Shown piece after piece: positions 2,722-47,894 of a stretch of DNA of 64,000 nt. Each line of letters begins with the position of its first letter. The stretch's first letter is position 1. Source of the DNA: Desulfosoma sp. (GTDB lineage Bacteria; Desulfobacterota; Syntrophobacteria; Syntrophobacterales; DSM-9756); contig JBBFKW010000010.1 in assembly GCA_037481835.1 (NCBI GenBank), forward strand, positions 108,234 through 172,233, written 5' to 3'. A program made the position numbers and the translations under genes. The notes under the pieces are model-generated. The model did not search any database, had not been told where the DNA came from, and worked only from the letters and a program-made list of their open reading frames with translations.

Positions 2722-3650
2722 TGAGCCGCCGGGATGTTCTTTCCGCCAAACGCTGGAGACTGGAAATGAGAAGCCGCATCCTCCACGGAATGCGGCTTTT
2801 CTTCGTGGATCGGGGCTTCATGGAAGTGCAGACCCCCGTGCGCACCCCGGCCCCCGCTCCCGAACGCCATATCGACGCCGTGCGCTCCGAGGGCTGGTAT
2901 TTGCAAACCAGCCCGGAGCTTTACATGAAGCGGCTTCTTGCGGCCGGCTACGAGAAGATTTTCCAAATCTGCCCCGTCTTCCGGAAGGGGGAACGAGGTC
3001 GCCGCCACCATCCCGAATTCACCCTTCTCGAATGGTACCGACTGGGCTCGGACTACGAGGCGCTCAAGGCGGACTGCCTGGAGCTCTTGCAGGCCGTCTG
3101 CGCTCATGTCGGCCGATACCCCCGCTTCCCTTTCGGCCCTCATTGGCTGACTGTGCTCCCGCCGTGGGAGCATTGGACGGTGAGGGACATCTTCCTGGAT
3201 CGTGCCGGCTGGGATCCCTTGAAAAATTACGATCCAGATCGATTCACGGAAGATCTCGTGGAAAAAATCGAGCCTACCCTGGGCTTTCCCGCTCCGGCCT
3301 TTCTTTCCGACTATCCGCCCGAGGAAGCGGCCTTGGCGAAACTCCGCCCCCATCAGGCCGTCAAGGTCGCCGAACGGTTTGAACTCTACTGGGCGGGCAT
3401 CGAATTGGCCAACGGCTTTTCCGAATTGACCGACCGGAAGGAACAGGAAGAACGCTTTCGAGAATGCCTCGCCCGGCGCCAAGAAGAAGGTCGAGACGTC
3501 TATCCCTGGCCCCTTCGGTTCTTGGAAAGCCTGGACGATTTGGAATCCGCCGCCGGCATCGCTTTGGGCGTCGACCGCCTGGTGATGCTCCTAACCGATG
3601 CCTCGTCCCTGGACGATGTGACGGCTTTCGAACCCGAGCATGAACCGTAA
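2721..3650 (+). CDS. epmA: EF-P lysine aminoacylase (EpmA/GenX)
   Basis: YLQTSPELYMKRLLA, FRKGE..HHPEFTLLEWY, ELANGFSEL and GIALGVDRL; no anticodon-binding domain; coupled to efp. Confidence 0.93.
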   Translation: MSRRDVLSAKRWRLEMRSRILHGMRLFFVDRGFMEVQTPVRTPAPAPERHIDAVRSEGWYLQTSPELYMKRLLAAGYEKIFQICPVFRKGERGRRHHPEFTLLEWYRLGSDYEALKADCLELLQAVCAHVGRYPRFPFGPHWLTVLPPWEHWTVRDIFLDRAGWDPLKNYDPDRFTEDLVEKIEPTLGFPAPAFLSDYPPEEAALAKLRPHQAVKVAERFELYWAGIELANGFSELTDRKEQEERFRECLARRQEEGRDVYPWPLRFLESLDDLESAAGIALGVDRLVMLLTDASSLDDVTAFEPEHEP

Positions 3651-3653
3651 GCC

Positions 3654-4868
3654 TCAGGATTCCTTCGCCCCTTCGCCGTAATAGGCCACAGCCGCAAAAG
3701 TCACGAAAGAGCCTTGACGATCCACCACGGCATGGTCGTGATGAAGCACCCGCCCTCGGGCTTTGCCGCGAAGTACGCGGCTGAGCACGTAAAGCGGGGG
3801 CACGCCGCACACTTTGCGGGCGTTGCCGTCTTTGAGGATTTCAGCCATGAACGCGTCCGGGTCCGGGGCTTCCAGGGCGGCGAGAAGTTTTCGGTCCGCA
3901 TCCAAATGCTCTTGGACCGTCAGGCGATTGGGCAGAAAATCATCGCCGTATCGAGGGCCGATATGGGCCAGGTCCACGCTCGCCAAAACCCCCACGGAGG
4001 TCCCGGATCGGTCCAAAACTTCCCGAAGCGCATCGCAAAACCCATCGATGGCCGCGTGGTGCGATTGCCAGTCCTCCACGCCGAACGAGCACAAAACGGG
4101 CACAATCCGAGCCGTCGGCTGCACGGACGCAAGAAACACCGCTTGAAACTCTATGGTGTGTTCCCGACTGTGCGCATATTCTCCGGCACACACATCCTGA
4201 GGCGCCCGCCGGGCGATTTCTTGGGCCATCTGCCGATCGCACGGCACAAGGCCGAGAGGGGTTTCGAAATCTTTGAAGGTGAGGGCAAAAAAGTTTTCGA
4301 TGGGTTCGTGGCCCGTTCCCACAATGACCCAGACAGCCGGCGGAACCGTTTCCCGAAGCGCCCTGTAGGCGCACCCAAAGGTGGCCGCACCCGCCCGAAT
4401 GTCAATGTGCGGGGCGACCAGGCCCATGAGGGGGCACGATTCTTTTTGGTTTCGGGGCTCGGGGGTGATGAGGGCGTCCAAGAATGCACGCAAATCCTCA
4501 GGTTTTTCCGGATAACTCTTTCCCGCATGGCGCATCCGCCTCACGGGATCCTCTCGGAACCTTTGGACCTCCCGCTGCACATGGTCCGCGTAACGGGCAT
4601 TGTCGAGAAAGAGATTTTCGTCCAGGACGCGGATCACTTCCTCGATCTGCTCGCTGTAGATGAGGTGCCCGGTTCGACGCAGGAAAAACGCCTGGATGTC
4701 CCGCACGGAATGCCGTCCATCCATGAGCGCCAGGAATGGGGCGAAGTCGGCGTTGAGGATCACATGATTCTCGTTGTAACCGAGACGGTCCCTTAACAGG
4801 ATGTACGGGCGCCCCTCATGGTGGATCGGCACGGCTTCCAAGCCATAACGCAGTTTCGGGTGTTCCAT
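3654..4868 (-). CDS. MEMO1-family protein (AmmeMemoRadiSam protein B-like) with N-terminal extension
   Basis: VAPHID, GTGH, HSREHTIEFQ, ASVDLAHIG, VCG motifs. Confidence 0.85.
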   Translation of the reverse strand: MEHPKLRYGLEAVPIHHEGRPYILLRDRLGYNENHVILNADFAPFLALMDGRHSVRDIQAFFLRRTGHLIYSEQIEEVIRVLDENLFLDNARYADHVQREVQRFREDPVRRMRHAGKSYPEKPEDLRAFLDALITPEPRNQKESCPLMGLVAPHIDIRAGAATFGCAYRALRETVPPAVWVIVGTGHEPIENFFALTFKDFETPLGLVPCDRQMAQEIARRAPQDVCAGEYAHSREHTIEFQAVFLASVQPTARIVPVLCSFGVEDWQSHHAAIDGFCDALREVLDRSGTSVGVLASVDLAHIGPRYGDDFLPNRLTVQEHLDADRKLLAALEAPDPDAFMAEILKDGNARKVCGVPPLYVLSRVLRGKARGRVLHHDHAVVDRQGSFVTFAAVAYYGEGAKES

Positions 4869-4970
4869 CGACTCTGCCTCGACGTTGACGGTCCCATGCA
4901 AATGTGATACGTGACAACGTCCATAGCTCCCGGATCGAAACATCTCTCGCGCTCGAAGGACAAAGCCTCC

Positions 4971-6671
4971 ATGCGGCACGCACCGAAGACATGCACCGCC
5001 TTATTTTTCCTTCTGTTCATGAGTTCCTGCAGCACCCTGGGTTTACGGACCGGCCCTTCGGCCCCCGGACCGGAACTGCCCAAGTCTCAAGCGTACGCCG
5101 CTTACCTGTTAGCCCAATACTACCTTCGGGTCAACGAGCCGGAAGAGGCTATCAAAGCCTATCGAAAGGCTTTGGAAATCGACCCCGAAGATCCCACCAT
5201 CCTCACGGACCTCGCCGTCCTGTACGTGCGTCAGGGCAATGTGCAGGAAGCACTTAATCTTGCTGAAAAGGCCGCTGAAGTCGACCCCAAATGCGAAAAC
5301 GCCTTCCTGCTCCTGGGGAGGCTCTACGCCGGCACCGGCAACAATGCCAAGGCCATCAAAGCCTACCAGTCGGTCATCTCCATCAACCCGTCCAACCACG
5401 ATGCCTATCTTTTGCTGGGAACCCTGTACGCGCAGGAAAACCGATTCCGCGAAGCCCTGGAGGCCCTGGAACATCTCAAAGCCCTCTTGCCCGACAACCC
5501 CCTGGCCTCCTATTACAAGGCCCGCATCTTTCTCGACATGAAATTCTACGAGCAAGCGGAAGCAGCCTACCAGGAAGTGCTGCAAATCAACCCGTTTTTC
5601 GATAGGGCCATGTTGGATCTGGCCTATATCTATGAAGTCACCGAGCGGTTTTCGGAAGCGGAAGCCACCTATCTTCGGCTGCTGGAAATCAACCCTGGCC
5701 ATGTCCAGGCGCGAAACCGGCTGAGCAACCTCTACATCCGCCAAAAGCTCTACGATAAGGCCTTGGAGCACCTGCGCATCCTATCCCAACAGGATGCCGA
5801 AGACCTGGAAGCGCGCCTCAAGATCGGCATCATCCACCTCCAACAGCGCAAGTACCAGGAAGCCATCTCCGATTTTCAGGCCCTGTTGAAGGATCGGCCG
5901 CAATACGACCAAGCTCTCTATTATCTGGCCACGTCTTACGAAGAAAAGGGCGAGCGCTCCGATCTGGAACAGGCCGTCGTCAACCTGCGGCTCATTCCCG
6001 AAAGCAGCCCCTTGTGGGATCCGGCCCAAATGCGCCTCGGTGTTCTCTTTTCCAAGCTGAATGACCACAAGTCCGGGATTCAGTGTTTGGAAAAGGCCAT
6101 CGCCCTGAAACCGAAGGTCATCGATTTCTACCTCTACCTGGCGTTTCTCTATGAAGAAGTCAAAGACTTCGCCAAAGCTCTGGAGACCTTGAACGCCGGC
6201 ATGGCCGTTGGCGGCGAAACGGTGACGTTGCTTTTCCGCAAGGGCATCGTGCTCGACCGCATGGATCGCAAGGAAGAAGCCCTGGAGGTCATGAAAAAGA
6301 TCCTCACACTGGAAAAAGACCATGCGGGGGCTCTCAACTACGTGGGCTACACCTATGCGGACAAGGGAATCCATCTGGACGAAGCCAAGGAACTCATCGA
6401 GCGCGCTCTGCAGAAAGAGCCCGAAGACGGCTACATCATGGACAGCCTGGCGTGGGTTTACTACCGACAGGGCAATTACATCAAGGCGTTGGAAGTGATG
6501 CGCAAGGCCCTGGAAATCGTGCCCGACGATCCCGTCATTTTGGAACACTACGGCGATATCCTGCAGGCTTTGGGCCGCTTGGAAGAAGCTCGCAAAGCCT
6601 ACGAAAAGGCCCTGGAAAAGGGGCATGAAAAGCCCGATACAATCCAGGAAAAGATCCAGCGGGTGCGATGA
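4971..6671 (+). CDS. TPR-repeat lipoprotein
   Basis: Lipobox-like FMSSC, many TPRs, C-terminal ALNYVGYTYAD / IMDSLAWVYY / VILEHYGD. Confidence 0.88.
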   Translation: MRHAPKTCTALFFLLFMSSCSTLGLRTGPSAPGPELPKSQAYAAYLLAQYYLRVNEPEEAIKAYRKALEIDPEDPTILTDLAVLYVRQGNVQEALNLAEKAAEVDPKCENAFLLLGRLYAGTGNNAKAIKAYQSVISINPSNHDAYLLLGTLYAQENRFREALEALEHLKALLPDNPLASYYKARIFLDMKFYEQAEAAYQEVLQINPFFDRAMLDLAYIYEVTERFSEAEATYLRLLEINPGHVQARNRLSNLYIRQKLYDKALEHLRILSQQDAEDLEARLKIGIIHLQQRKYQEAISDFQALLKDRPQYDQALYYLATSYEEKGERSDLEQAVVNLRLIPESSPLWDPAQMRLGVLFSKLNDHKSGIQCLEKAIALKPKVIDFYLYLAFLYEEVKDFAKALETLNAGMAVGGETVTLLFRKGIVLDRMDRKEEALEVMKKILTLEKDHAGALNYVGYTYADKGIHLDEAKELIERALQKEPEDGYIMDSLAWVYYRQGNYIKALEVMRKALEIVPDDPVILEHYGDILQALGRLEEARKAYEKALEKGHEKPDTIQEKIQRVR

Positions 6672-30055: not shown

Positions 30056-30130
30056 GGCGGCATACCCAAGTGGTAAGGGAGCGGTCTGCAAAACCGTTAT
30101 TCACCGGTTCGAATCCGGTTGCCGCCTCCA
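30056..30130 (+). tRNA. tRNA-Cys (GCA)
   Basis: Acceptor stem GGCGGCA/TGCCGCC, anticodon arm GCGGT-CTGCAAA-ACCGT, GGTTCGAATCC T-loop, encoded CCA. Confidence 0.97.
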
Positions 30131-38618: not shown

Positions 38619-39073
38619 ATAGGGGTAGAAACGGTGTATTGCTTTGCCCAGTCCCTCTCCCCTCTGAACCGTGCGTGCGGATCTCCCGCGCACGGCCCTC
38701 CCCTCGGGGGAATACCGAGCGGCCTCTTGGCCTTGGAACCCGGCTTGTCCAGGAGACCCGTCGGGTCGGCCTTGGACGGTACCTGCCCTCCTGCAGTTCC
38801 TGATGCAGTCGGGTGAGGTTGCCATCGAGGGTGCGCTCAAATTTTCGAGGGTCTCCAGTATGCCCTCCGTCCACACGTAACGTTCCACCCACGTCCAGTC
38901 TCTGGGCCGGGTTTCTCCCTTTTGTTCAGCCTTCTCAGACACCGCCGCGGGTTTCCTTTCGCTCCGCGTGGGCTTTGCCCATCCACCTTCCTGCGTCCCT
39001 TCGCTCCACGGGCATTACCCCGCTTCCTCGCTCCTACGAACGCTCTGACTCCTGCCCCGCTGGCTCTCCACAC
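38619..39073 (-). mobile_element. Group II intron remnant: DIII-like RNA, deleted RT fragment, DV and DVI
   Basis: Minus strand GGAGTCAGAGCGTTCGTAGGAGCGAGGAAGCGGGGTAATGCCCGTGGAGCGAAGGG; RT N-terminal pieces WTWVERYVWTEG and FERTLDGNLTRLHQELQEGRYRPRPTRRV; DV GGCCGTGCGCGGGAGATCCGCACGCACGGTTC; 3' end CTACCCCTAT. Confidence 0.85.
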
Positions 39074-39102
39074 CCAGCAGGGGGGCGAGGGCCTCGCACC
39101 GA

Positions 39103-40068
39103 GCGGCCGAAGAAGAACAGCTCAGGCTGGAAAGCGCCGAAAACCTGGTGCAGGTGGTGACCATCCACCCGAGCAAGGGCCTGGAATACCCGTTGGTCTT
39201 CCTGCCGTTTCCCTGGTCGGGAGGCTCTTCCGGGGACGGGGACGCGGTGGAGGTTTCACGACCCCGAAGACCTCAAGCTCTGCGTGGACCTGGCATCCGA
39301 TGATCTCGAGGACCGCCGGGCGTTGCAGGAAAGGGAGGACCTGGCCGAGCGGATGCGCCTCCTGCACGTGGCCCTCACCCGCGCCAAGCACCTGTGCGTC
39401 ACCACCTGGGGAAAAATCTATGAAGCGTCCCGGTCCGCCATGGCCCGGCTGCTCTTTCCGGATCCGGATTTCCCCGGGGACCGCGCCCGGGCGAATGTTT
39501 GATGGAACGGGTCCTGGACACCCCGCTCAACGCGGACGGCCTGAATCTTCGAGGAATCGAAAGCCGGAACCGACTGGACGAACTGGAATTCCACTACTCC
39601 CTCGGGCTTCTCACGCCCGATTCCCTGGCGGAAGCCGTCCGGGGTGAAGCGTTCTACGAAAGATCCTTGGAAGGGCTCGGCTTCGGACACCTGCGGGGGC
39701 TCATGCGAGGCTTCATCGACCTGGCCTTTCAATCCGACGACCGCGACTACATCGCCGACTACAAATCGAACCACCTGGGAAACCGCGTGGAAGACTATGC
39801 CGCGGACGCCCTGGGACGGGCCATGCACGCCCACCGCTACCCGCTCCAGGCGCTCGTCTACACCGTGGCCCTCCACCGGTATCTGCGGGCTCGGCTTCCC
39901 GGCTACGACTACGAGCGCCACTTCGGCGGCGTCTTCTACCTCTTCCTTCGCGGCATGCGCCCCGAAACCGGCCCCGCCTCCGGCGCCTTCTTCACCAAGC
40001 CGCGCCGCGACCTGGTGCAACGCCTCGACGAGACCTCGAAGGGCTCGCCCCACGCCGCGCCGGGATAG
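39103..40068 (+). pseudogene. recB: RecB remnant (helicase motifs V/VI plus nuclease domain; frameshift, stop and internal deletion)
   Basis: EQLRLESAENLVQVVTIHPSKGLEYP; ERMRLLHVALTRA; GFIDL...IADYKSNHLG; HRYPLQ; FGGVFYLFLRG. Confidence 0.85.
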
Positions 40069-40232
40069 AAAACGCAGGCGCCACCTGCCCCGGGAAACCC
40101 TGTCCGGCTATCGTTTCATCCACTGTTGGTGGAAGGGACCGCGAGGCGGCATTGAAGGTAGGAGGTCAGGTTCGCTCGCCTTCAGAATCCGCAAGCGCTT
40201 TTCCCCGCGGCGCCCTACTGTCTCCTGAATGC

Positions 40233-40309
<77 letters not shown>

Positions 40310-40331
40310 AGCCCGTTTTTGGCACGTAAAC

Positions 40332-40574
40332 CTACGCCACCTGAAAAGATTGACCAAGCGGCTGAAACTCGGCCACTTCTTGCCTCTCCAGTTTCTGTCG
40401 AATTTGCTCAAAGCGCCTGACTGTCTCAGCAGAATACAACCGTTCACCACAGCGCAAACACACCTCAGCACGCACCGTAATCACCGCTGTATGGACACCA
40501 CCTTTGAGCAGTTTTTCTACGTGCTTTTCGACCAACTCGCCACCACAGACAGGACACTTTTCAAAAGGTCTCAT
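40332..40574 (-). CDS. YgiT/MqsA-type zinc-finger protein (cassette 2, putative antitoxin)
   Basis: CPVCGG...AEVCLRCGERLY; ATGA-coupled to the DUF4258-like gene. Confidence 0.85.
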   Translation of the reverse strand: MRPFEKCPVCGGELVEKHVEKLLKGGVHTAVITVRAEVCLRCGERLYSAETVRRFEQIRQKLERQEVAEFQPLGQSFQVA

Positions 40575-40885
40575 CTCTTTCTCCTGATGCGCCAGTCAAT
40601 CCATCGATTGGGGTCAGGTCGGTACACAGTGACCAGCACAGCCCATTCTGTTTCGGAATTGTAAGCCCAAACACTGTGGATCGGCTCTCCAGCAAAATTG
40701 TCACCATAGATCAGGCAACTCGGATAAGGCTTGTCAGACGGATAATCTTCAATGATCTCGCCGCGTAGGACGCTGAAGAAGATTTCATCGAAGGATAGAT
40801 GGTCTGCTTGTGCTTCTTCGTCGGCGTGGTCACTGATGCGAATACGGTTATGACGGATAGCCTCAATTATGTTTTCCATGTCCAC
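40571..40885 (-). CDS. DUF4258-like protein (cassette 2, putative RelE-like toxin)
   Basis: SDHADEE, GEIIEDYPSDKPYPSCLIYG, PIHSV, VTVYRPDPNRW. Confidence 0.85.
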   Translation of the reverse strand: MDMENIIEAIRHNRIRISDHADEEAQADHLSFDEIFFSVLRGEIIEDYPSDKPYPSCLIYGDNFAGEPIHSVWAYNSETEWAVLVTVYRPDPNRWIDWRIRRKR

Positions 40886-40950
40886 GTGTAACTCTTGCTG
40901 AACAGATTTGGTCTCTATTGTATCCCGACATGGTAGAGAAGCACAGGGCT

Positions 40951-41019
40951 GGCTAACGATTGAGCTCACCTGCGAGTGGCGCGTCAGCGCCACGAGTCAG
41001 GTGTAGCGATTTGTTAGGG
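40951..41019 (-). other. Integron attC site (proximal, 69 bp)
   Basis: Minus strand R'' CCCTAAC (contains the cassette 1 stop codon), GCTACACC / GGTGAGC, R' GTTAGCC. Confidence 0.9.
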
Positions 41020-41721
41020 CGCGTTGTCATCGGGTTTCTGTGCTGAGCTAAGCTGTTCGGGCTCTTCTTCGCGCTCTTTGCGGTAGCGCTCGCGGTCCTT
41101 ACTCGTGAAGACGTCTACTTTTAGCTTTTGGAATCCCGTTGCGACCTTGTGAAGGTCACCTTGCAGTTTCTCGATGTTCTTGGCGATCTTCAGCAGAGGG
41201 GGCTCGCCGATGCGCTGCACTCCCTTCAATTCGGAGAGATCGATAACATGCTGTCGTTCTTTTGTCTGTCCGGACGCGCTTCTATAGCGGCTTCTGATGG
41301 TCACCTGGGTCTGGAGCTTCTCTTCAAAATGTTCATTCATGGAAGTCCAGAAGGAAAAGAACTCTTGTCCTGGGCCGAGAAAAGCTATCCCGGTGCTCAG
41401 CCCCTTGATGTTGCCCAAACTGTCGATAAGGTCACTGCTGCCTTTGCTGGTCGTATTTGCAGACCACGTGAACGTTAGATCGTACGCGGGACCAGCACCG
41501 ATGTTCTTTACGACTATATCAATCAGAGAAATCCATTCATCGCGCGGGCGATAAGAGACTTCAATGTGCGGCTCGGTTTCTGCTTCGCGGAGACGTTTCG
41601 TTTAGGACACGAGCCGGGCCGTGAGCCACGCATAAACGACCGTGGAAGCGGCCACGACGCCAGCAAAGAGAAGGTTGATAACCCCCGAATTCTGGTTGAG
41701 AAAATTGACGAGCTCGGTCAT
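41014..41721 (-). pseudogene. Cassette 1 ORF: single-TM hypothetical protein with one in-frame TAA at codon 40
   Basis: MTELVNFLNQNSGVINLLFAGVVAASTVVYAWLTARLVS*TKRLREAETEPHIEV..., continuing in frame into ORF 41014..41418. Confidence 0.8.
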
Positions 41722-41760: not shown

Positions 41761-41906
41761 GCAAGATGGTTGTTATAGCCCATTTAACTAGTTACCCATC
41801 AAGCTTCTCCTTGTCAAAAAGAAAAATAAGAAAACTCGTTGGCCGGAACCCTAATCTCGGATAGGCTAACTAAGGCGGGACCGGTGTTATGGAGATTGTG
41901 TAGAAT
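41741..41906. repeat. Perfect 16-bp inverted repeat bracketing the attI-intI spacer
   Basis: ATTCTACACAATCTCC (41741-41756) and GGAGATTGTGTAGAAT (41891-41906). Confidence 0.9.
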
Positions 41907-41919
41907 CGCAAGGCTGAAT

Positions 41920-42630
41920 ATGGCCGCGATTGACACAAACTTGAAAGCCGTGCTGGAAGGATATGCTGACTTCCTGGGGGAAAAGAAGTTGGCCCCGCAC
42001 AAACATCAACCCCACCTGGTACGGTGGGTGCGGCAATTCCTGCTCTATGCCAGAGAGCACGGTGGCTACACTTTCGAGCAAACCTTGAACCTGTTCCTGA
42101 GCGCGCTGGGCAAACGTGCCGGCGTCGAGGCGTGGCAAATCCAGCAGGCTGCGGACGCCATTCGCATTTATCGGTATCAGTATCGCGGCGAAGGCGGGCC
42201 CAAAGAGGAGAAACTGAAAGACGACAGCGTTTCAGGGAGTGACGAGAGGTTGCTCGATCGGCTTCGCGAGGTTATTCGACTGCGCCACTATGCAAAGAGT
42301 ACGGAGAAATCCTACCTGCAGTGGACGCGGAGATTTCTCGCGTATCGCAAGCATGCCGGGCTTGCGGGCGAGCCCGCCGTCTCCGATGTGAAGGCGTTTC
42401 TCACCCGTCTGGCAATGGTTAAGAATGTAAGCGCATCGACACAGAATCAGGCGTTCAGAGCATTGCTTCTTTTTTTCAGGGAACTCTTGCGAAAGGACTT
42501 AAACGAAATGGGCCAGACCGTTGAAATCCAAGAACTCTTGGGCCACAAGAGCCTCGAGACGACGATGATCTATACGCACGTCGCACGAGAACTGAAGACA
42601 AACGCACGCAGTCCGCTTGACGATCTGTAA
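41920..42630 (+). pseudogene. intI: Integron integrase with N-terminal extension; catalytic core deleted in frame
   Basis: IRLRHYAKSTEKSYLQW, VSASTQNQA (IntI SAM domain) joined near 42522 directly to EIQELLGHKSLETTMIYTHV...RSPLD; the R, K and HxxR regions are absent. Confidence 0.9.
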
Positions 42631-43105
42631 GCGACGGCATCCCCGCCGCGGCCTGCCGCCGGAGACGAACATGGACACCGACGGGCCCGTCGCCTCCTCG
42701 ATCCGCATTGGGAAGCTCCATACCGCCGGGAAATCGTGGCGGACCGAACTCTAATTCAACGAGCAACGGCTGCTGGATGTGCTGATGTGAGCCGGAAGCG
42801 GGGGATATCCAGAAGCTGTCCGGCCATGGCTGATTTGCGCCGTTTAGCGCCCGTTCGTCCCTCTCCGTGAAGTCCGTCCGCGGGTTGGACGAGAGCGGAG
42901 GTCCAAAATTGTCAGCACCTGATGGTCTTCTGCTTACGCGGGAGTAGCAGTTGGGGGAGTTCCCAGAGAGCCTCCCAGGAATCCAAGGAGAAGAGCCTCC
43001 CGGGTCGCCGGTGTGGAATCGCACTGGGTTTGGGACGACCTCGTGCGCCGCCTGGGATTCATGGGCGGTTTCATCCGGCGGCGAAAGGAGCGAGGGAAAG
43101 GGGGC

Positions 43106-43125
43106 GGGCGAAGGACTTTTCGCCC
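43106..43125. repeat. Degenerate REP-like palindrome
   Basis: GGGCGAA-GGACTT-TTCGCCC. Confidence 0.4.
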
Positions 43126-43237
43126 CCGAAGGCAGAAGATCCGGGGATCCTTGAGGGCTAGGAGTTGGAAGGCTCTGCACAGTCCCGGAATGTGTAGGCA
43201 CACGTTCCGGCCTCCGTTTGCATGATGATTGATTAGC

Positions 43238-43262
43238 GGGCGGGGATAAACCCCGCCCCTAC
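43238..43262 (-). repeat. GTAG-type REP-like element
   Basis: Minus strand GTAG-GGGCGGGG-TTTAT-CCCCGCCC. Confidence 0.7.
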
Positions 43263-43284
43263 CCAAGGGGTCCGTCCCTTTTTG

Positions 43285-43409
43285 ATAGGCGTAGGAAGGG
43301 CTCGTTACCGAGTCCCTCCCCTCTCGGAACCGTACGTGCGGATCTCCCGCATACGGCTCTCCGGTCGGAGGACTTTCATCTCTATGATCGCGCCTGCTCC
43401 CAGGCGCAC
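43285..43409 (-). mobile_element. 125-nt group II intron relic: 5' end fused directly to DV-DVI
   Basis: Minus strand GTGCGCCTGGGAGCAGGCGCGATCATAGAGATGAAAGTCCTCC-GACCG-GAGAGCCGTATGCGGGAGATCCGCACGTACGGTTC-CGAGAGGGGAGGGACTCGGTAACGAGCCCTTCCTACGCCTAT. Confidence 0.85.
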
Positions 43410-43410
43410 A

Positions 43411-43433
43411 AGGGGCGAGTTATGCCTTGCCCC
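43411..43433 (+). repeat. REP-like hairpin immediately 5' of the mini-intron
   Basis: AGGGGCGAG-TTATGC-CTTGCCCC. Confidence 0.6.
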
Positions 43434-43546
43434 CAAGGCCCGCCCTTCAGGCACGCACGATGACAAAAGGTGAAAGACCGGCGCTTTCCAGCCCATGCGC
43501 CGTTGTGGTAAAAGGCGGGAAATTCCCACATCCGGAAGGAGCCGAC

Positions 43547-45540
43547 GTGCTGAGCGAAGCCCGCCGCATCCTGAAAACCGTCTTCGGCTACGACGATTTT
43601 ATCTTCTTGCAGGAGCGGGTCCTGGAAAACGTGCTGGAACGCCGGGAGACCCTGGCCGTCATGCCCACGGGCGGCGGAAAATCCGTCTGCTACCAGATCC
43701 CGGCCCTCCTGTGGGACGGCCTCACCGTGGTGGTCTCGCCCCTCATCTCGCTCATGAAGGACCAGGTGGACCAGCTCCTCACCCTGGGCGTTCCCGCCGT
43801 CATGCTTAGCAGCTCCCTTACGGAAGAACAGTACCGGTCCAACGTGGCGGCGATCCGCGCCGGCCGGGCCTGGATCGTTTACATGGCGCCGGAGACGGCC
43901 CGCCATCCGGCGGTGATGGATCTCTTGAGATCCTGCCAGGTGGAACTCCTCGCCATCGACGAAGCCCACTGCATTTCCGAATGGGGCCCGGACTTTCGGC
44001 CCGAATACCGGAGGCTCGCGGAACTCCGGGACGCCTTCCCCGACGCCGTCTGTCTCGCCCTGACCGCCACGGCCACCCCCCGCGTGCGTCGGGACATCCT
44101 GGAGTGCCTCCGGATGTCGTCCGCCGCCGAAGTGGTGGCCGGGTTCAACCGGGAAAACCTTTTCCTGAAGGTGGACTACAAGGTGGATCCGCTGGGGCAG
44201 GTGCTCCGGGTGATCGGGCGCTTCCCAAGAGAATCCGGCATCATCTACTGCCACACGCGCCGGCGCGGGGATTTCCTGTGCGGGTCCCTCCAGGACCGGG
44301 GCATCCCGGCGGCGGCCTACCACGCCGGCCTGGACGACGCCCAACGCCGCCGGGCCCAGGAACTCTTCGTGGGGGACGACATCCGGGTCATGGTGGCCAC
44401 GGTGGCCTTCGGCATGGGCATCGACAAGTCCAACGTTTGGTACGTGATCCACTACGATCTTCCCAAGAACCTGGAAGGCTATTACCAGGAGATCGGCCGG
44501 TCGGGGCGCGACGGCCTGCCCGCTGAATGCGTACTGCTCTTTTCCCACGCCGATGCGGCCGGGAGGCGGCGGCACATCCAACGCCTGGAAGATCCCCTTC
44601 TTCGCAGGGCCGCCCCCGCCCAGCTGGACGCCATGGTGCGCTTCGCCGAAACGGAATCCTGCCGCCGAATTCCCCTGCTGGGCTACTTCGGTGAAGAGAC
44701 GCCGGAAGCAAACTGCAATATGTGCGACAACTGCACGGAACCGGACCGCCCGGCCTTGGACGTGACCGTTCCCGCCCAGAAGCTCCTTTCCTGCGTGGTG
44801 AGGACGGGCCAGAGGTTCGGAGCGGGCTACGTGGTCTCCGTGCTGTGCGGATCGAAGACGAAGCGGATTCTCGAAAACCGCCACCACGAACTGTCCACCC
44901 ACGGCATCGGCACGGAATACTCCCCGCGCGGATGGCGATCGTTGGCCGAATGTCTCACCTGGCGGGGCCTGCTGGAAAGGGACTCCGAATTCGGAGCCCT
45001 CCGCCTCACCCGGGAAGGCTGGGACGTGCTCCGTTCGCGCCACCCGATCCATGTGCGCTGGCACCCGCTGGATGAGGCCATGCCCGGTCAGGCGGCGGAC
45101 CCGGACGCGGAAGAGGCGGCCTTTCCCCGGGAGCTCTTCGAACGGCTTCGTAAGAAACGGCGGGAATCGGCCCAGGCGCTGGGGGTGCCTCCCTACGTGA
45201 TCTTTTCCGATCGCAGCCTGGCGGACATGGCGGCCCGGATGCCCCAAACTCCGGAAGAGATGCTCGCCGTGCACGGGGTGGGAGAGGGAAAACTGGAAAG
45301 GTTCGGCGAGGATTTCCTTTCGGTCTTCCGGGACTTTCGCCGCGAACATCCCGACGTGCAACCGGTCCCGTCGGCCTCGACCCCGACCCCCAAAACGCGC
45401 TCTTCCGGCCGGACGGGACGCCACCACCAGGTGGCGAAAGCCTTCAACCAGGGAAGGTCCCTGGACGACCTCTGCCGGGACTTCGGCGTCCAGAAACGGA
45501 CCGTTTTGTGGCACCTGCGCCGTTACCAGATGGAAGGCTG
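43547..45540 (+). pseudogene. recQ: RecQ helicase (helicase, Zn, RQC and HRDC domains present); C-terminal HTH truncated and reading through into foreign sequence to 46306
   Basis: MPTGGGKS, IDEAHCISEWG, TATA, QEIGRSGRDG, CNMCDNC, PPYVIFSDRSL; homology ends after HLRRYQMEG. Confidence 0.85.
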
Positions 45541-45560
45541 CGCGCCCCGGTGGGCCGGCC

Positions 45561-45895
45561 CATCAACCGGAAAACCGGCTCCTGGGCGACGGCCCGGTCC
45601 GCCGTCTCGGGAATTTTCCGCTGGACCGGGTGGAAGAGCTGTGCGACCCGGTGGAAACCCTCTGGGCCGTCGGAAACAGCAGCTTCGCGGGCCTGAACGA
45701 CCGCATGAGCCTGGAGCAGACCAAGCAGGCCCCTGCCGGGTCGCTCCTTTTCATCGAGCCGGAAAATCTTGCGTTCCGCATCGCCCTCAACAGCAAGGGG
45801 CTCAAAAAGGTCTGGGCCGAATTCTTCTTTCGCGGTATCCCTTACCGGCTCAGCGTGACGGACCCGGCCGTGGAGGCGGAGCTTCTGGACAATGG
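45561..45895 (+). pseudogene. Internal fragment of a dual-OB-fold-like protein
   Basis: HQPENRLL...LWAVGNSSFAGLNDRM...SLLFIEP...VWAEFFFRGIPYRLSVTDP; no own start or stop. Confidence 0.55.
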
Positions 45896-47894
45896 AGGAT
45901 GTCGGCGAAAGGGTCGCCGTGGCCGGGCAGGAGCTGCCCCGAAAGGGCTTTCTCGTCTGCCGCCACTGCGGCAAGGTGCAGCTCCGGCGCGACCGCCAGG
46001 AACATGCGCTCACATGCAAGGCGCGAAACCAGAGCGCCGATGAAAACGTGCTGGAGTGCGTCTATCTCTACCGGGAATTCGCCTCGGAAGCGGTGCGGAT
46101 TCTCCTTCCCACGGCAACGGGAGAATACGCCCGGAGCGCCCACGAATCCTTTGTCGCCGCCCTGCAGCTGGGGCTTCGGCGAATGTTCGGCGGCAACGTG
46201 GATCATCTTCGGATCATGGACCACGAGGAGCCGGTGCCGGAGACGTCCTATCGCAAGAAGTACTTGGTCCTCTTCGACACCGTCCCGGGCGGCACGGGCT
46301 ACCTGAAGCAGCTCATGCGCTCTCCGGAGCCCCTCATGGACGTGCTCCAGCGCGTTCTGGACGTACTCAAGGCCTGCTCCTGCCGCCAAGATCCCGCCAA
46401 GGACGGCTGTTACCGCTGCCTCTATGCCTACAAATACGGCAACCGGCTGCCGGCCATCTCCCGGGAACGGGCCATGGAGCAGCTTTCGGCGGTGCTGGAC
46501 CGGAGGGACAAGCTGGTGCGGGTGGAATCGCTCAAGCACGTGCCGGTGACCGGCCTGCTGGAAAGCGAACTGGAAGCCCTCTTCATCGAGGCGCTGCGGC
46601 GCAGCCGAGCCCGCGGGCGCAGGGTGAGCCTGAAAAAGGGGCTGGTCCGCGGCAAGCCGGGCTATTACCTGAAGATCGACGATGAGGCCTATCTCATCGA
46701 ACCCCAGGTGGAACTGGGCGCCTCCCAGGGGGTGGCGGAACCCAGCCGGGCCGATTTCGTCTTCCGGCCGCTTCGGGAGAGTCGGGGAATCAAGCCCATC
46801 GTCGTTTTTGCCGACGGATTCGCCTATCACCGCAAACGTGTGGGCCTGGATCTGGCCCAGCCCATGGCCCTGGTGCAAAGCGGACGCTTCCGGGTCTGGT
46901 CCCTCACCTGGCACGATGTGCAGGCGCGGCTTTCCGCGGCTCCAGCGGCCCCCCACTACGTGGACCTGGCCGGCAGCCTGGAGACCAACCTGGGAAAGAA
47001 CCTGGGCCAGGTTTGCCGGATGTTCGGCGTGGAGGATCTGGGCCCGCTTCGGGGGGACGATGGCTTTTCCTGGCTCTTGGCCTTCCTGGCCGAACCCGAT
47101 GCGGACCGGTGGAGCCGTTTCGCCCATGTGTGCGGCCTGTCGCTCATAAACGGCGCGGCAGGCGATCACGCCATGAGCCGCGAAGCCTTCCTGGCCCGGT
47201 TGCCGCGTGAAAACATGGCGGACGCGAAAGGGATTTTTGAGGACGTCTTGGAAATCGCCCTGTTGGGAATCCATCCGCCGGATCCCGAGGATGCCCGGAA
47301 GCAGGTGCAGATGTTCGTGGCCGCCGGCAAGGAGGCTGTGCGCCTGCAGAAGCCTGAAGATCTCCGCCTGCTGATCTGCCTGGAAGACGGCTCCGAGCAG
47401 CAGGAAGCCGACGGTTTCCAGGCGGCCTGGAACGGGGGGCTTCGCGCCTACAATCTCTTTCATTTCGTTCCGCGCACCCTGGCGGTGGCCGCTCGGGGTT
47501 GGAAAAGGGCCTCTACGGCGGACTGCTGACCCCCGCACCCGAAGGGCCTTCGGAGACGGCCGGGGCCGAGCCGCCGGAACTTTCGTCGCAGAGGGCGGGG
47601 CTTTCTCCGGATTGGGATCAGGTTTTGAAGTTCGTGGACCCGGCCCTGCGGCCGGTTTTGGACCTTGCCGCCCAAAAGGGGCTGCCGCCGCCCCAGGTGG
47701 GTTTTGAGTTGCAAGGGGACGACGGCGGGGTCATCGCCCAGGCCGAAGCGGCCTGGGAGGACGCCCGGCTGGCTTGGCTCCGGGACGACGAGATGGAATT
47801 CGCCCCCGTGTTTGCCGACGCCGGCTGGCAAACGGCCTTTCTTGCGGAGGTCGCGGCCCGGCCGGAAGAACACCTGGCGCCGCTGATCGAATGA
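45892..47894 (+). pseudogene. C-terminal remnant of a large DEAD/DEAH helicase with DUF1998 (MrfA-like Zn) domain; frameshift near 47495
   Basis: CRHCG, SFVAALQLGL, LFDTVPGGTGYL, CSC....DGCYRCL, ESELE, RADF, DGFAYH; tail PQVGFEL...AEAAW in the second frame; no helicase motifs remain. Confidence 0.8.

Follow-up and report, generated by a model that had tools for sequence, protein, structure and literature searches.

A 125-nt group II intron remnant with both intron ends, between a decayed integron and recQ in Desulfosoma sp.

The locus and its features

The window, i.e. the whole stretch of DNA that was analysed, comprises 64,000 nt from Desulfosoma sp. (contig JBBFKW010000010.1, positions 108,234-172,233), and all coordinates below are window positions. 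The subject of this study is a 125-nt element on the minus strand. The features that surround and compose it are as follows, with the domains V and VI of the intron abbreviated DV and DVI.

38619-39083, minus strand: another copy of this intron family (the second remnant), truncated at the 5' end, with most of the RT gene deleted and DV-DVI retained
41839-42630, plus strand: integron-integrase remnant, Phage_int_SAM_4 and only the last ~35 residues of Phage_integrase
43285-43409, minus strand: the 125-nt element, a group II intron remnant in which positions 1 to ~42 are joined to the last ~83 nt
43290-43323, minus strand: DVI, upper helix and GTAA loop intact, both basal pairs mismatched
43327-43359, minus strand: DV, 33 nt, AGC triad, every stem pair kept (RF00029 alignment, fold and alignment with relatives)
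43362-43371, minus strand: deletion junction zone; 43371-43368 belongs to both the 5'-derived and the 3'-derived alignment, context CC(T/A)CC
43368-43409, minus strand: 5' segment, GTGCG, first hairpin (7 bp, 4-nt loop) and GAGA-TGAAAGT-CCTC hairpin
43411-43434, minus strand: imperfect hairpin in the 5' flank, ending 1 nt before the intron, probable target motif (RNAfold)
43460-46306, plus strand: recQ helicase gene (Pfam DEAD, Helicase_C, RecQ_Zn_bind, RQC, HRDC)

The element is intergenic and lies at the edge of a decayed integron. On one side the ATG of recQ, at 43460, is 50 nt from the 5' end of the element and the gene runs divergently. A long minus-strand ORF crosses the element; it was rejected as a gene, being the shadow frame of the plus-strand recQ. 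On the other side is the integron integrase, with the element beyond its 3' end and outside the cassette array. Integron-associated IIC-attC introns, by comparison, are defined by a position within an attC recombination site. The integrase remnant reaches 108 bits against TIGR02249, under the cut-off of 265. Its translation lacks the catalytic core and passes directly from the SAM-like N-terminal part to the C-terminal tyrosine motif.

The second remnant is located 4.3 kb from the element. RF00029 matches its DV-DVI at 38619-38700(-) with 43.2 bits, and it aligns with positions 348-581 (74%, E 1e-38) and 1807-1886 (72%) of L010, a complete relative described below. Its RT gene is left in pieces that tblastn assigns to residues 1-46, 91-120 and 122-136. 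There is no intact RT gene in the window: the RT of L010 matches, by tblastn, only the fragment in this second remnant.

The region between the two remnants holds some further features. The second remnant adjoins a PD-(D/E)XK nuclease fragment (39499-40068, plus strand; PF12705 at 23 bits, cut-off 22) that by eye is like the C-terminal nuclease domain of RecB, and its upstream part has apparently been cut off by the remnant. At 40232-41418 on the minus strand we find cassette-like small genes, an unassigned 134-aa ORF followed by a pair of DUF4258 and MqsA-like zinc-ribbon genes that looks like a toxin-antitoxin module. Long imperfect hairpins at 40940-41015 (z -2.9) and 40232-40325 (z -3.2) each follow one cassette-like gene and look like attC sites. 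Elsewhere in the window there is a tRNA gene at 30056-30127 (plus strand; RF00005, 67.2 bits), which is unrelated to the element.

Anatomy and decay of the element

Termini of the 5' GUGYG and 3' AY type are present in the element, GTGCG at 43409-43405 and ..CTAT at 43285. The 5' boundary is the start shared with at least 121 intron 5' ends, and the 3' boundary (..CTAT) is the same end as in L010, L070, L079 and the second copy in the window. The original prediction, made from the letters alone, had listed a GTGCG 5' end with its first stem, a DV with an AGC triad and a DVI ending CCTAT on the minus strand, and all of these are present. The Rfam search for group II introns that it proposed gives a match of RF00029 to 43285-43361(-) along the full model, with 50.6 bits (gathering score 40, E 5.6e-07 for the whole window).

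DV is the hairpin with catalytic triad and 2-nt bulge; all its pairs form and it carries no damaging change. In DVI the branch-site A (43292) precedes the 3' end by 8 nt, and CCTAT terminates the domain at 43285. Both pairs beneath the branch A are broken, as seen in the non-canonical-pair marks of RF00029 and in the fold: the base reads CTACGCC in the element versus CTACCCC in four of four relatives, a G for a C. The claim that DV-DVI is intact thus held for DV, which is perfect, but not for DVI, where the basal helix is broken.

The 5' segment has also changed. Position 31 (43379), which closes the second hairpin, is A in the element versus G in all 86 unique reference 5' ends among the matches listed. 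Further, the motif after the first hairpin is GATGAAAGTCC in the element versus GGTGAAAGTCC in the relatives.

Could the element be retained as a functional RNA, either a trans-acting DV-DVI for an intron without DV, or an antisense or leader element affecting recQ? DV can act in trans in vitro, the DV found here is flawless, and the element lies on the opposite strand 50 nt from the start of recQ. The MFE fold of the 125 nt, in which the DV, DVI and first hairpins form and the second small hairpin is absent, is stronger than 200 of 200 shuffles (z -3.8). However, this strength comes from the DV and DVI hairpins, as a legacy of the intron, and is uninformative on present function. The changes in the basal helix of DVI and in the conserved 5' hairpin are disruptive, no DV-less partner exists in the window, where the one further intron piece carries a DV itself, and there is no promoter-like site on either strand at 43000-43600 (sigma-70 consensus only). 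In the same interval one terminator-like site is found versus 0.9 expected, which is uninformative. We regard a retained function as very improbable. For the trans-acting DV RNA that the original prediction had offered as one option, the decay in DVI and in the 5' hairpin counts against it and the idea is left unsupported.

Between the two ends hardly anything of the intron is left. From DI-DIII only DI positions 1-42 remain, and there is no Rfam D1-D4 match in the element. At a permissive threshold over 43150-43520, Rfam gives no DI-DIV family for the 48-nt 5' part, a result that is uninformative at such a length. The RT/maturase of DIV is absent, 125 nt being too short for it, and the region of DI bearing the EBS2 and IBS1-EBS1 pairing is deleted.

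Group II introns need DI-DIII to fold and splice, and it is DI that binds the exons. With no DI beyond 42 nt and neither DII nor DIII, the RNA should be unable to bind exons, splice or reverse-splice, and the sequence is presumably drifting. This agrees with the original view that self-splicing is unlikely. The would-be spliced exon junction would join ..CCCCTT to CAAAAAGG...

The hairpin in the 5' flank has a z of -1.24 for the 51-nt flank, which is not significant, and it falls short of a strict criterion that 100 of the 120 listed relatives satisfy. The only repeats around the element that resemble a target-site duplication are two-copy families of 14-15 nt with 86-87% identity, taken as chance.

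The intron family of the element

To compare the 5' end with those of other introns, 185,579 representative genomes were scanned with the pattern GTGCGCC-N(16-23)-GAGNTGAAAGTCCTC. The scan gave at least 121 stretches, all beginning at GTGCGCC; the 2-kb flanks of 80 of these at least 121 loci were examined, and all scan-based counts are lower bounds from a partial sample. Since the pattern was derived from the element itself, only the 20 positions that it leaves free were tested, in the 75 of the at least 121 listed loci that have an equal gap length. L011 matches the element at 18 of the 20 free positions, and L010 and L065 match at 17; per comparison, the binomial P (p=0.25) is 1.6e-09 for 18 and 3e-08 for 17 matches.

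It had been proposed that the claim of two ends would fall if the 5' 45 nt did not align with the 5' ends of full-length introns. They do align: by blastn, positions 1-42 of L010 match 43409-43368 with 90.5% identity (E 2e-10 against the window). Among the matches listed, 100 of 120 unique flanks have a hairpin whose end is at most 12 nt upstream, versus 16 of 117 control windows, placed 200 nt further upstream; a run of T is present in 86 of the 120.

Among plasmids, blastn with the full 125-mer matches 132 records, none of them with at least 80% coverage, and among the 30 listed of these 132 all begin at query 50 or 51, i.e. they cover DV-DVI only. The 48-nt 5' part alone gives 21 weak matches (E 0.8-10), four of which share one stretch, query 15/16-43, and come from three E. 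coli plasmids and Polaromonas JS666 plasmid 2. In the Polaromonas plasmid (L002) this match begins ~15 nt past a GTGCG and is followed by a match to RF02001 (group-II-D1D4-3) and, ~335 nt away on the same strand, by an annotated ltrA. The E. coli plasmid pHum4b has the same arrangement, an extreme intron 5' end and then RF02001. On these sequence comparisons, the identification of the first 42 nt of the element as a real group II intron 5' end stands.

As an aside, the Polaromonas locus holds at 2987-6028 two tandem group II introns, each with its own ltrA, and the 5' end of the second begins a few nt past the 3' end of the first.

Three relatives are complete introns. L010 is 1886 nt long and encodes a 445-aa RT/maturase (TIGR04416 at 383 bits, cut-off 300) with RVT_1 and GIIM only and no endonuclease domain. 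L070 is 1841 nt long, and L079 is an ORF-less intron of 764 nt. The 3' half of the element aligns with the ends of these introns: L070 positions 1751-1841 match 43371-43285 (76%, E 5e-12) and L079 positions 676-735 match 43371-43312 (83%). In the alignment of L010 to the element there is nothing between positions 42 and ~1784.

Each half of the element thus aligns, in colinear order, with one end of full-length introns from a single family, and ~1.75 kb is absent, namely the remainder of DI, DII, DIII and the RT gene. This corresponds to a loss of ~93% of the intron (125 of ~1886 nt remain). This supports one of the options in the original prediction, a deletion scar that keeps both ends.

To which class does this family belong? 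The criteria for class C (IIC) given by Toor et al. 2006 (PMC1702495) are small size, a CGC triad and a distal DV stem with 2 bp fewer than that of IIA/IIB. The same source adds the lack of EBS2, a short IBS1-EBS1 pairing (3-4 bp) and insertion after a terminator or another stem-loop. Most of the fetched loci fit IIC, with a 30-nt DV of the CGC type and a run of T.

The family of the element shares some of these properties. Its 5' 42-nt motif is common to many CGC-type IIC introns, it inserts after a hairpin, and its RT is without endonuclease. Against solved structures the L010 RT reaches 210 bits with 7uim, 204 with GsI-IIC RT, 153 with 6me0 and 149 with LtrA; judged by these scores, it scores best against, and appears closest to, the IIC RTs.

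In other respects the family is unlike class C. The DV triad is AGC, not CGC, in the element, the second copy, L010, L070 and L079, and DV is 33 nt long versus 30 nt in the CGC-type loci, with a distal stem of full length. The target hairpins of six close relatives are perfect, 8-9 bp long, end 2-3 nt upstream and are without a run of T. The ribozyme is also larger, as the ORF-less L079 has 764 nt versus ~425 nt in the CGC-type L075. In summary, the parent family is best called IIC-like, as distinct from canonical IIC. It blurs a textbook class boundary, as it combines the 5' end, targeting and RT of class C with a standard AGC-type DV, and it may merit a proper phylogenetic placement.

A side observation concerns L011 (108-152), L065 (59-103) and L043 (189-233), from three metagenome-assembled genomes. 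These loci have nearly the same 8-bp hairpin with a GAAG loop 2 nt before the intron, which suggests that this intron subfamily targets a conserved repeated sequence.

Deletions and the origin of the element

Short derivatives with both ends are not restricted to Desulfosoma. DV was searched with a pairing-based finder that accepts AGC or CGC and may miss the DV at some loci; two of its matches (L074 at 436 and L027 at 828) did not resemble a DV on inspection by eye and were discarded. Of the fetched loci, a partial sample, 45 extend at least 800 nt past the 5' end; six of these have DV within 1 kb of the 5' end, and in eleven loci it is found at 1742-1855. A DV regular expression and an nhmmer profile of three seeds returned nothing beyond the seeds, both being too narrow. 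The six short derivatives, in each of which the intron begins at locus position 2001, are:

L041: ~215 nt, both ends and a piece of DI
L078: ~265 nt, 5' ~58 nt and 3' ~205 nt, same architecture as the 125-nt element
L075: ~425 nt, ribozyme only
L072: ~635 nt, internal deletions
L079: 764 nt, complete ORF-less intron
L055: ~1025 nt, RT gene partly deleted

The junction is different in each of these six, so they are independent deletions and not one spreading family. A converse kind of remnant occurs in L043 (234-300), where a solo 5' fragment of ~65 nt from the same subfamily is followed by unrelated AT-rich sequence that, by eye, encodes a pilin-like N-terminus.

Such derivatives bear on the proposal, also part of the original prediction, that the element is a MITE-like, non-autonomous mini-intron mobilised in trans by full-length members of the family. 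Both termini are retained, short derivatives that keep both ends recur in other genomes (L041 at ~215 nt, L078 at ~265 nt), and there are known ORF-less introns that use a related RT in trans (PMC4424553, PMC2504315). On the other hand, the mobile ORF-less introns on record keep the complete ribozyme, every short derivative has a different junction and the window has no intact RT gene. By the known mechanism, an element without the target-pairing regions of DI would not reverse-splice.

Copy number points the same way. Searching with the first 40 nt and up to 3 mismatches gives one copy only in the 64-kb window. For the 5' variant of the element, the pattern ATAG.G.TGAAAGTCC has 0 matches in the 185,579 representative genomes; this pattern, modelled on another intron, is over-specific, and the collection is without this organism's own genome. 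Neither a parent copy nor an empty site was found in that same collection. As far as searched, there is one copy in the window and none elsewhere, which is the pattern that the original prediction had associated with a simple scar, and we consider a MITE-like element extremely unlikely.

Instead, the element is very probably an inactive relic, that is a deletion scar, of a mobile group II intron of ~1.85 kb. The homology of its halves to both intron ends, the missing interior, the single copy in the window and the mutations at conserved positions are demonstrated by the data above. From these we infer the sequence of events, how the deletion came about and that the element is without function. 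The parent would have been a member of the family of L010 and L070, with an RT/maturase without endonuclease, inserting 2-3 nt past a GC-rich hairpin. It would have inserted on the minus strand after the hairpin at 43411-43434, between the decayed integron integrase and recQ. Later, a loss of positions ~43 to ~1803 would have removed DII, DIII, DIV with its RT gene and all but the beginning of DI.

On balance, we favour a loss by one or more deletions at the DNA level after the insertion; within these 5 kb the integrase and the second remnant have also lost internal sequence. Both ends survive because the deletion is internal, and one that went past the 5' end would also have struck the start of recQ, 50 nt off.

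Before DV the relatives read ..ACCACC(A/G)ACTGG-AGAGCC versus ..GTCCTC-CGACCGG-AGAGCC in the element, and the CGACCGG past the junction corresponds to ..CCGACTGG.. before DV in the relatives. The 5'- and 3'-derived alignments overlap by 4 nt, but given the CC(T/A)CC context the true microhomology is at most 1-2 nt. An imperfect direct repeat flanking the deletion was considered and rejected: in a local alignment with shuffle control, the observed score was reached by 86 (L010), 308 (L070) and 33 (L079) of 500 shuffles.

The large deletion of the second remnant ends within a few nt of that of the element, before DV, and both breakpoints are just before the ..CCGA..GG that precedes DV. In the other genomes, L041 and L075 break at most ~10 nt from DV, while L078, L072 and L055 break inside the RT gene. 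As detection based on DV is blind to deletions that enter it, these breakpoint counts are biased towards positions outside DV.

Retrohoming offers another route to the same structure. In this process full reverse splicing attaches both RNA ends to DNA before cDNA synthesis. The copy could have been born deleted, if the RT, having copied DVI and DV, left the template at the base of DIV and resumed at ~position 42 within the same RNA. It would never have been full-length at this site, and would still be a dead relic; only its origin differs.

An RT jump after full reverse splicing would give exactly the architecture of the element (for retrohoming see the abstract of PMC3280974), and published abstracts describe group II RTs as prone to template switching. 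The microhomology of only 1-2 nt fits as well, and it is a weak hint in the same direction that 3' breakpoints in the element, the second remnant, L041 and L075 cluster shortly before DV. Against this, the breakpoints of L078, L072 and L055 lie elsewhere, the preference for DV-bearing loci favours breakpoints outside DV in any case, and the second remnant would require several events as well as a 5' truncation. Further, the adjacent integrase has an internal deletion that no RT explains. We think that a copy born deleted is rather unlikely.

For the relic reading as a whole there is some counter-evidence. A flawless DV fits constraint, yet it is expected by chance in 33 nt of a young relic. 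The upstream hairpin of the element is weaker than those of the relatives. Finally, the clustering of 3' breakpoints before DV is unexplained by random DNA deletion and could reflect a hotspot, an RT jump or selection.

A more speculative idea is that solo-end copies such as the element, L041 and L078 are no random debris but a recurrent product of RT jumps from the base of DIV to the first hairpins of DI, or that they persist as RNAs of 5' hairpin and DV-DVI that bind the intron protein or supply DV in trans. We judge it very unlikely. If true, the near-identical 3' breakpoints of the two remnants in the window would be a signature of this solo-end process.

Comparison with known systems

The deletion relic that we favour records a past invasion by an IIC-like intron family beside recQ and a decayed integron, and is of little import alone. 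Of wider interest is that extreme internal-deletion derivatives with both exact termini recur, as in the partial sample of 45 loci with enough sequence. Such derivatives are overlooked by censuses that start from the RT gene. Conversely, as RF00029 matches them at full score, annotation pipelines could take terminus-keeping relics for intact introns.

DV or DV-DVI RNAs have been supplied in trans to DV-less ribozymes in vitro. The DV-DVI module of the element is likewise separated from DI-DIII. Unlike those RNAs, however, it is joined to an intron 5' end, its DVI is damaged and it is without a known partner. Natural trans-splicing is described for organellar introns (PMC4424553, seen in part).

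The group III introns of Euglena chloroplasts have 90-120 nt, with motifs of DI and DVI but without DV (PMC4424553). The element is of similar size and is likewise an extreme reduction of a group II intron. However, group III introns are in essential plastid genes, are spliced and have no DV, whereas in the element, located between bacterial genes, DV is the best-preserved part and nothing in its sequence suggests that it is spliced.

ORF-less group II introns of bacteria are rare and keep the whole ribozyme (PMC4424553, PMC2504315). As in the element, an internal deletion has left both ends in place, and L079, from the family of the element, and L075, from a sister subfamily, are examples. 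In contrast to the element, with only 42 nt of DI, these introns keep DI-DIII, DV and DVI, and they can splice or move with an RT in trans.

The closest parallel is with intron fragments. Group II introns in bacteria fragment frequently (PMC2504315, citing Dai and Zimmerly; seen in part), and 111 fragments were counted in 90 Enterobacteriales genomes (PMC3522654, in the part consulted). In S. meliloti AK83 there is an RmInt1 copy with nt 1520-1844 deleted, and the FRE652 remnant and conserved 5' remnants are described as well (PMC4181065, likewise in part). No published description of this exact architecture was found in a partial literature collection, which is weak evidence, and the best 10 of 82 records on miniature group II introns in bacteria held nothing on mini-introns of such a kind.

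Like the known fragments, the element is inactive, is in a noncoding region, has a single copy in the window and a decayed relative nearby, and has no intact parent that we could see. Unlike those fragments, which in the sources as far as seen are mostly truncated at one end or carry a smaller internal deletion, it has lost ~93% of the intron and kept both exact termini. In kind the element is ordinary, but its reduction is unusually extreme.
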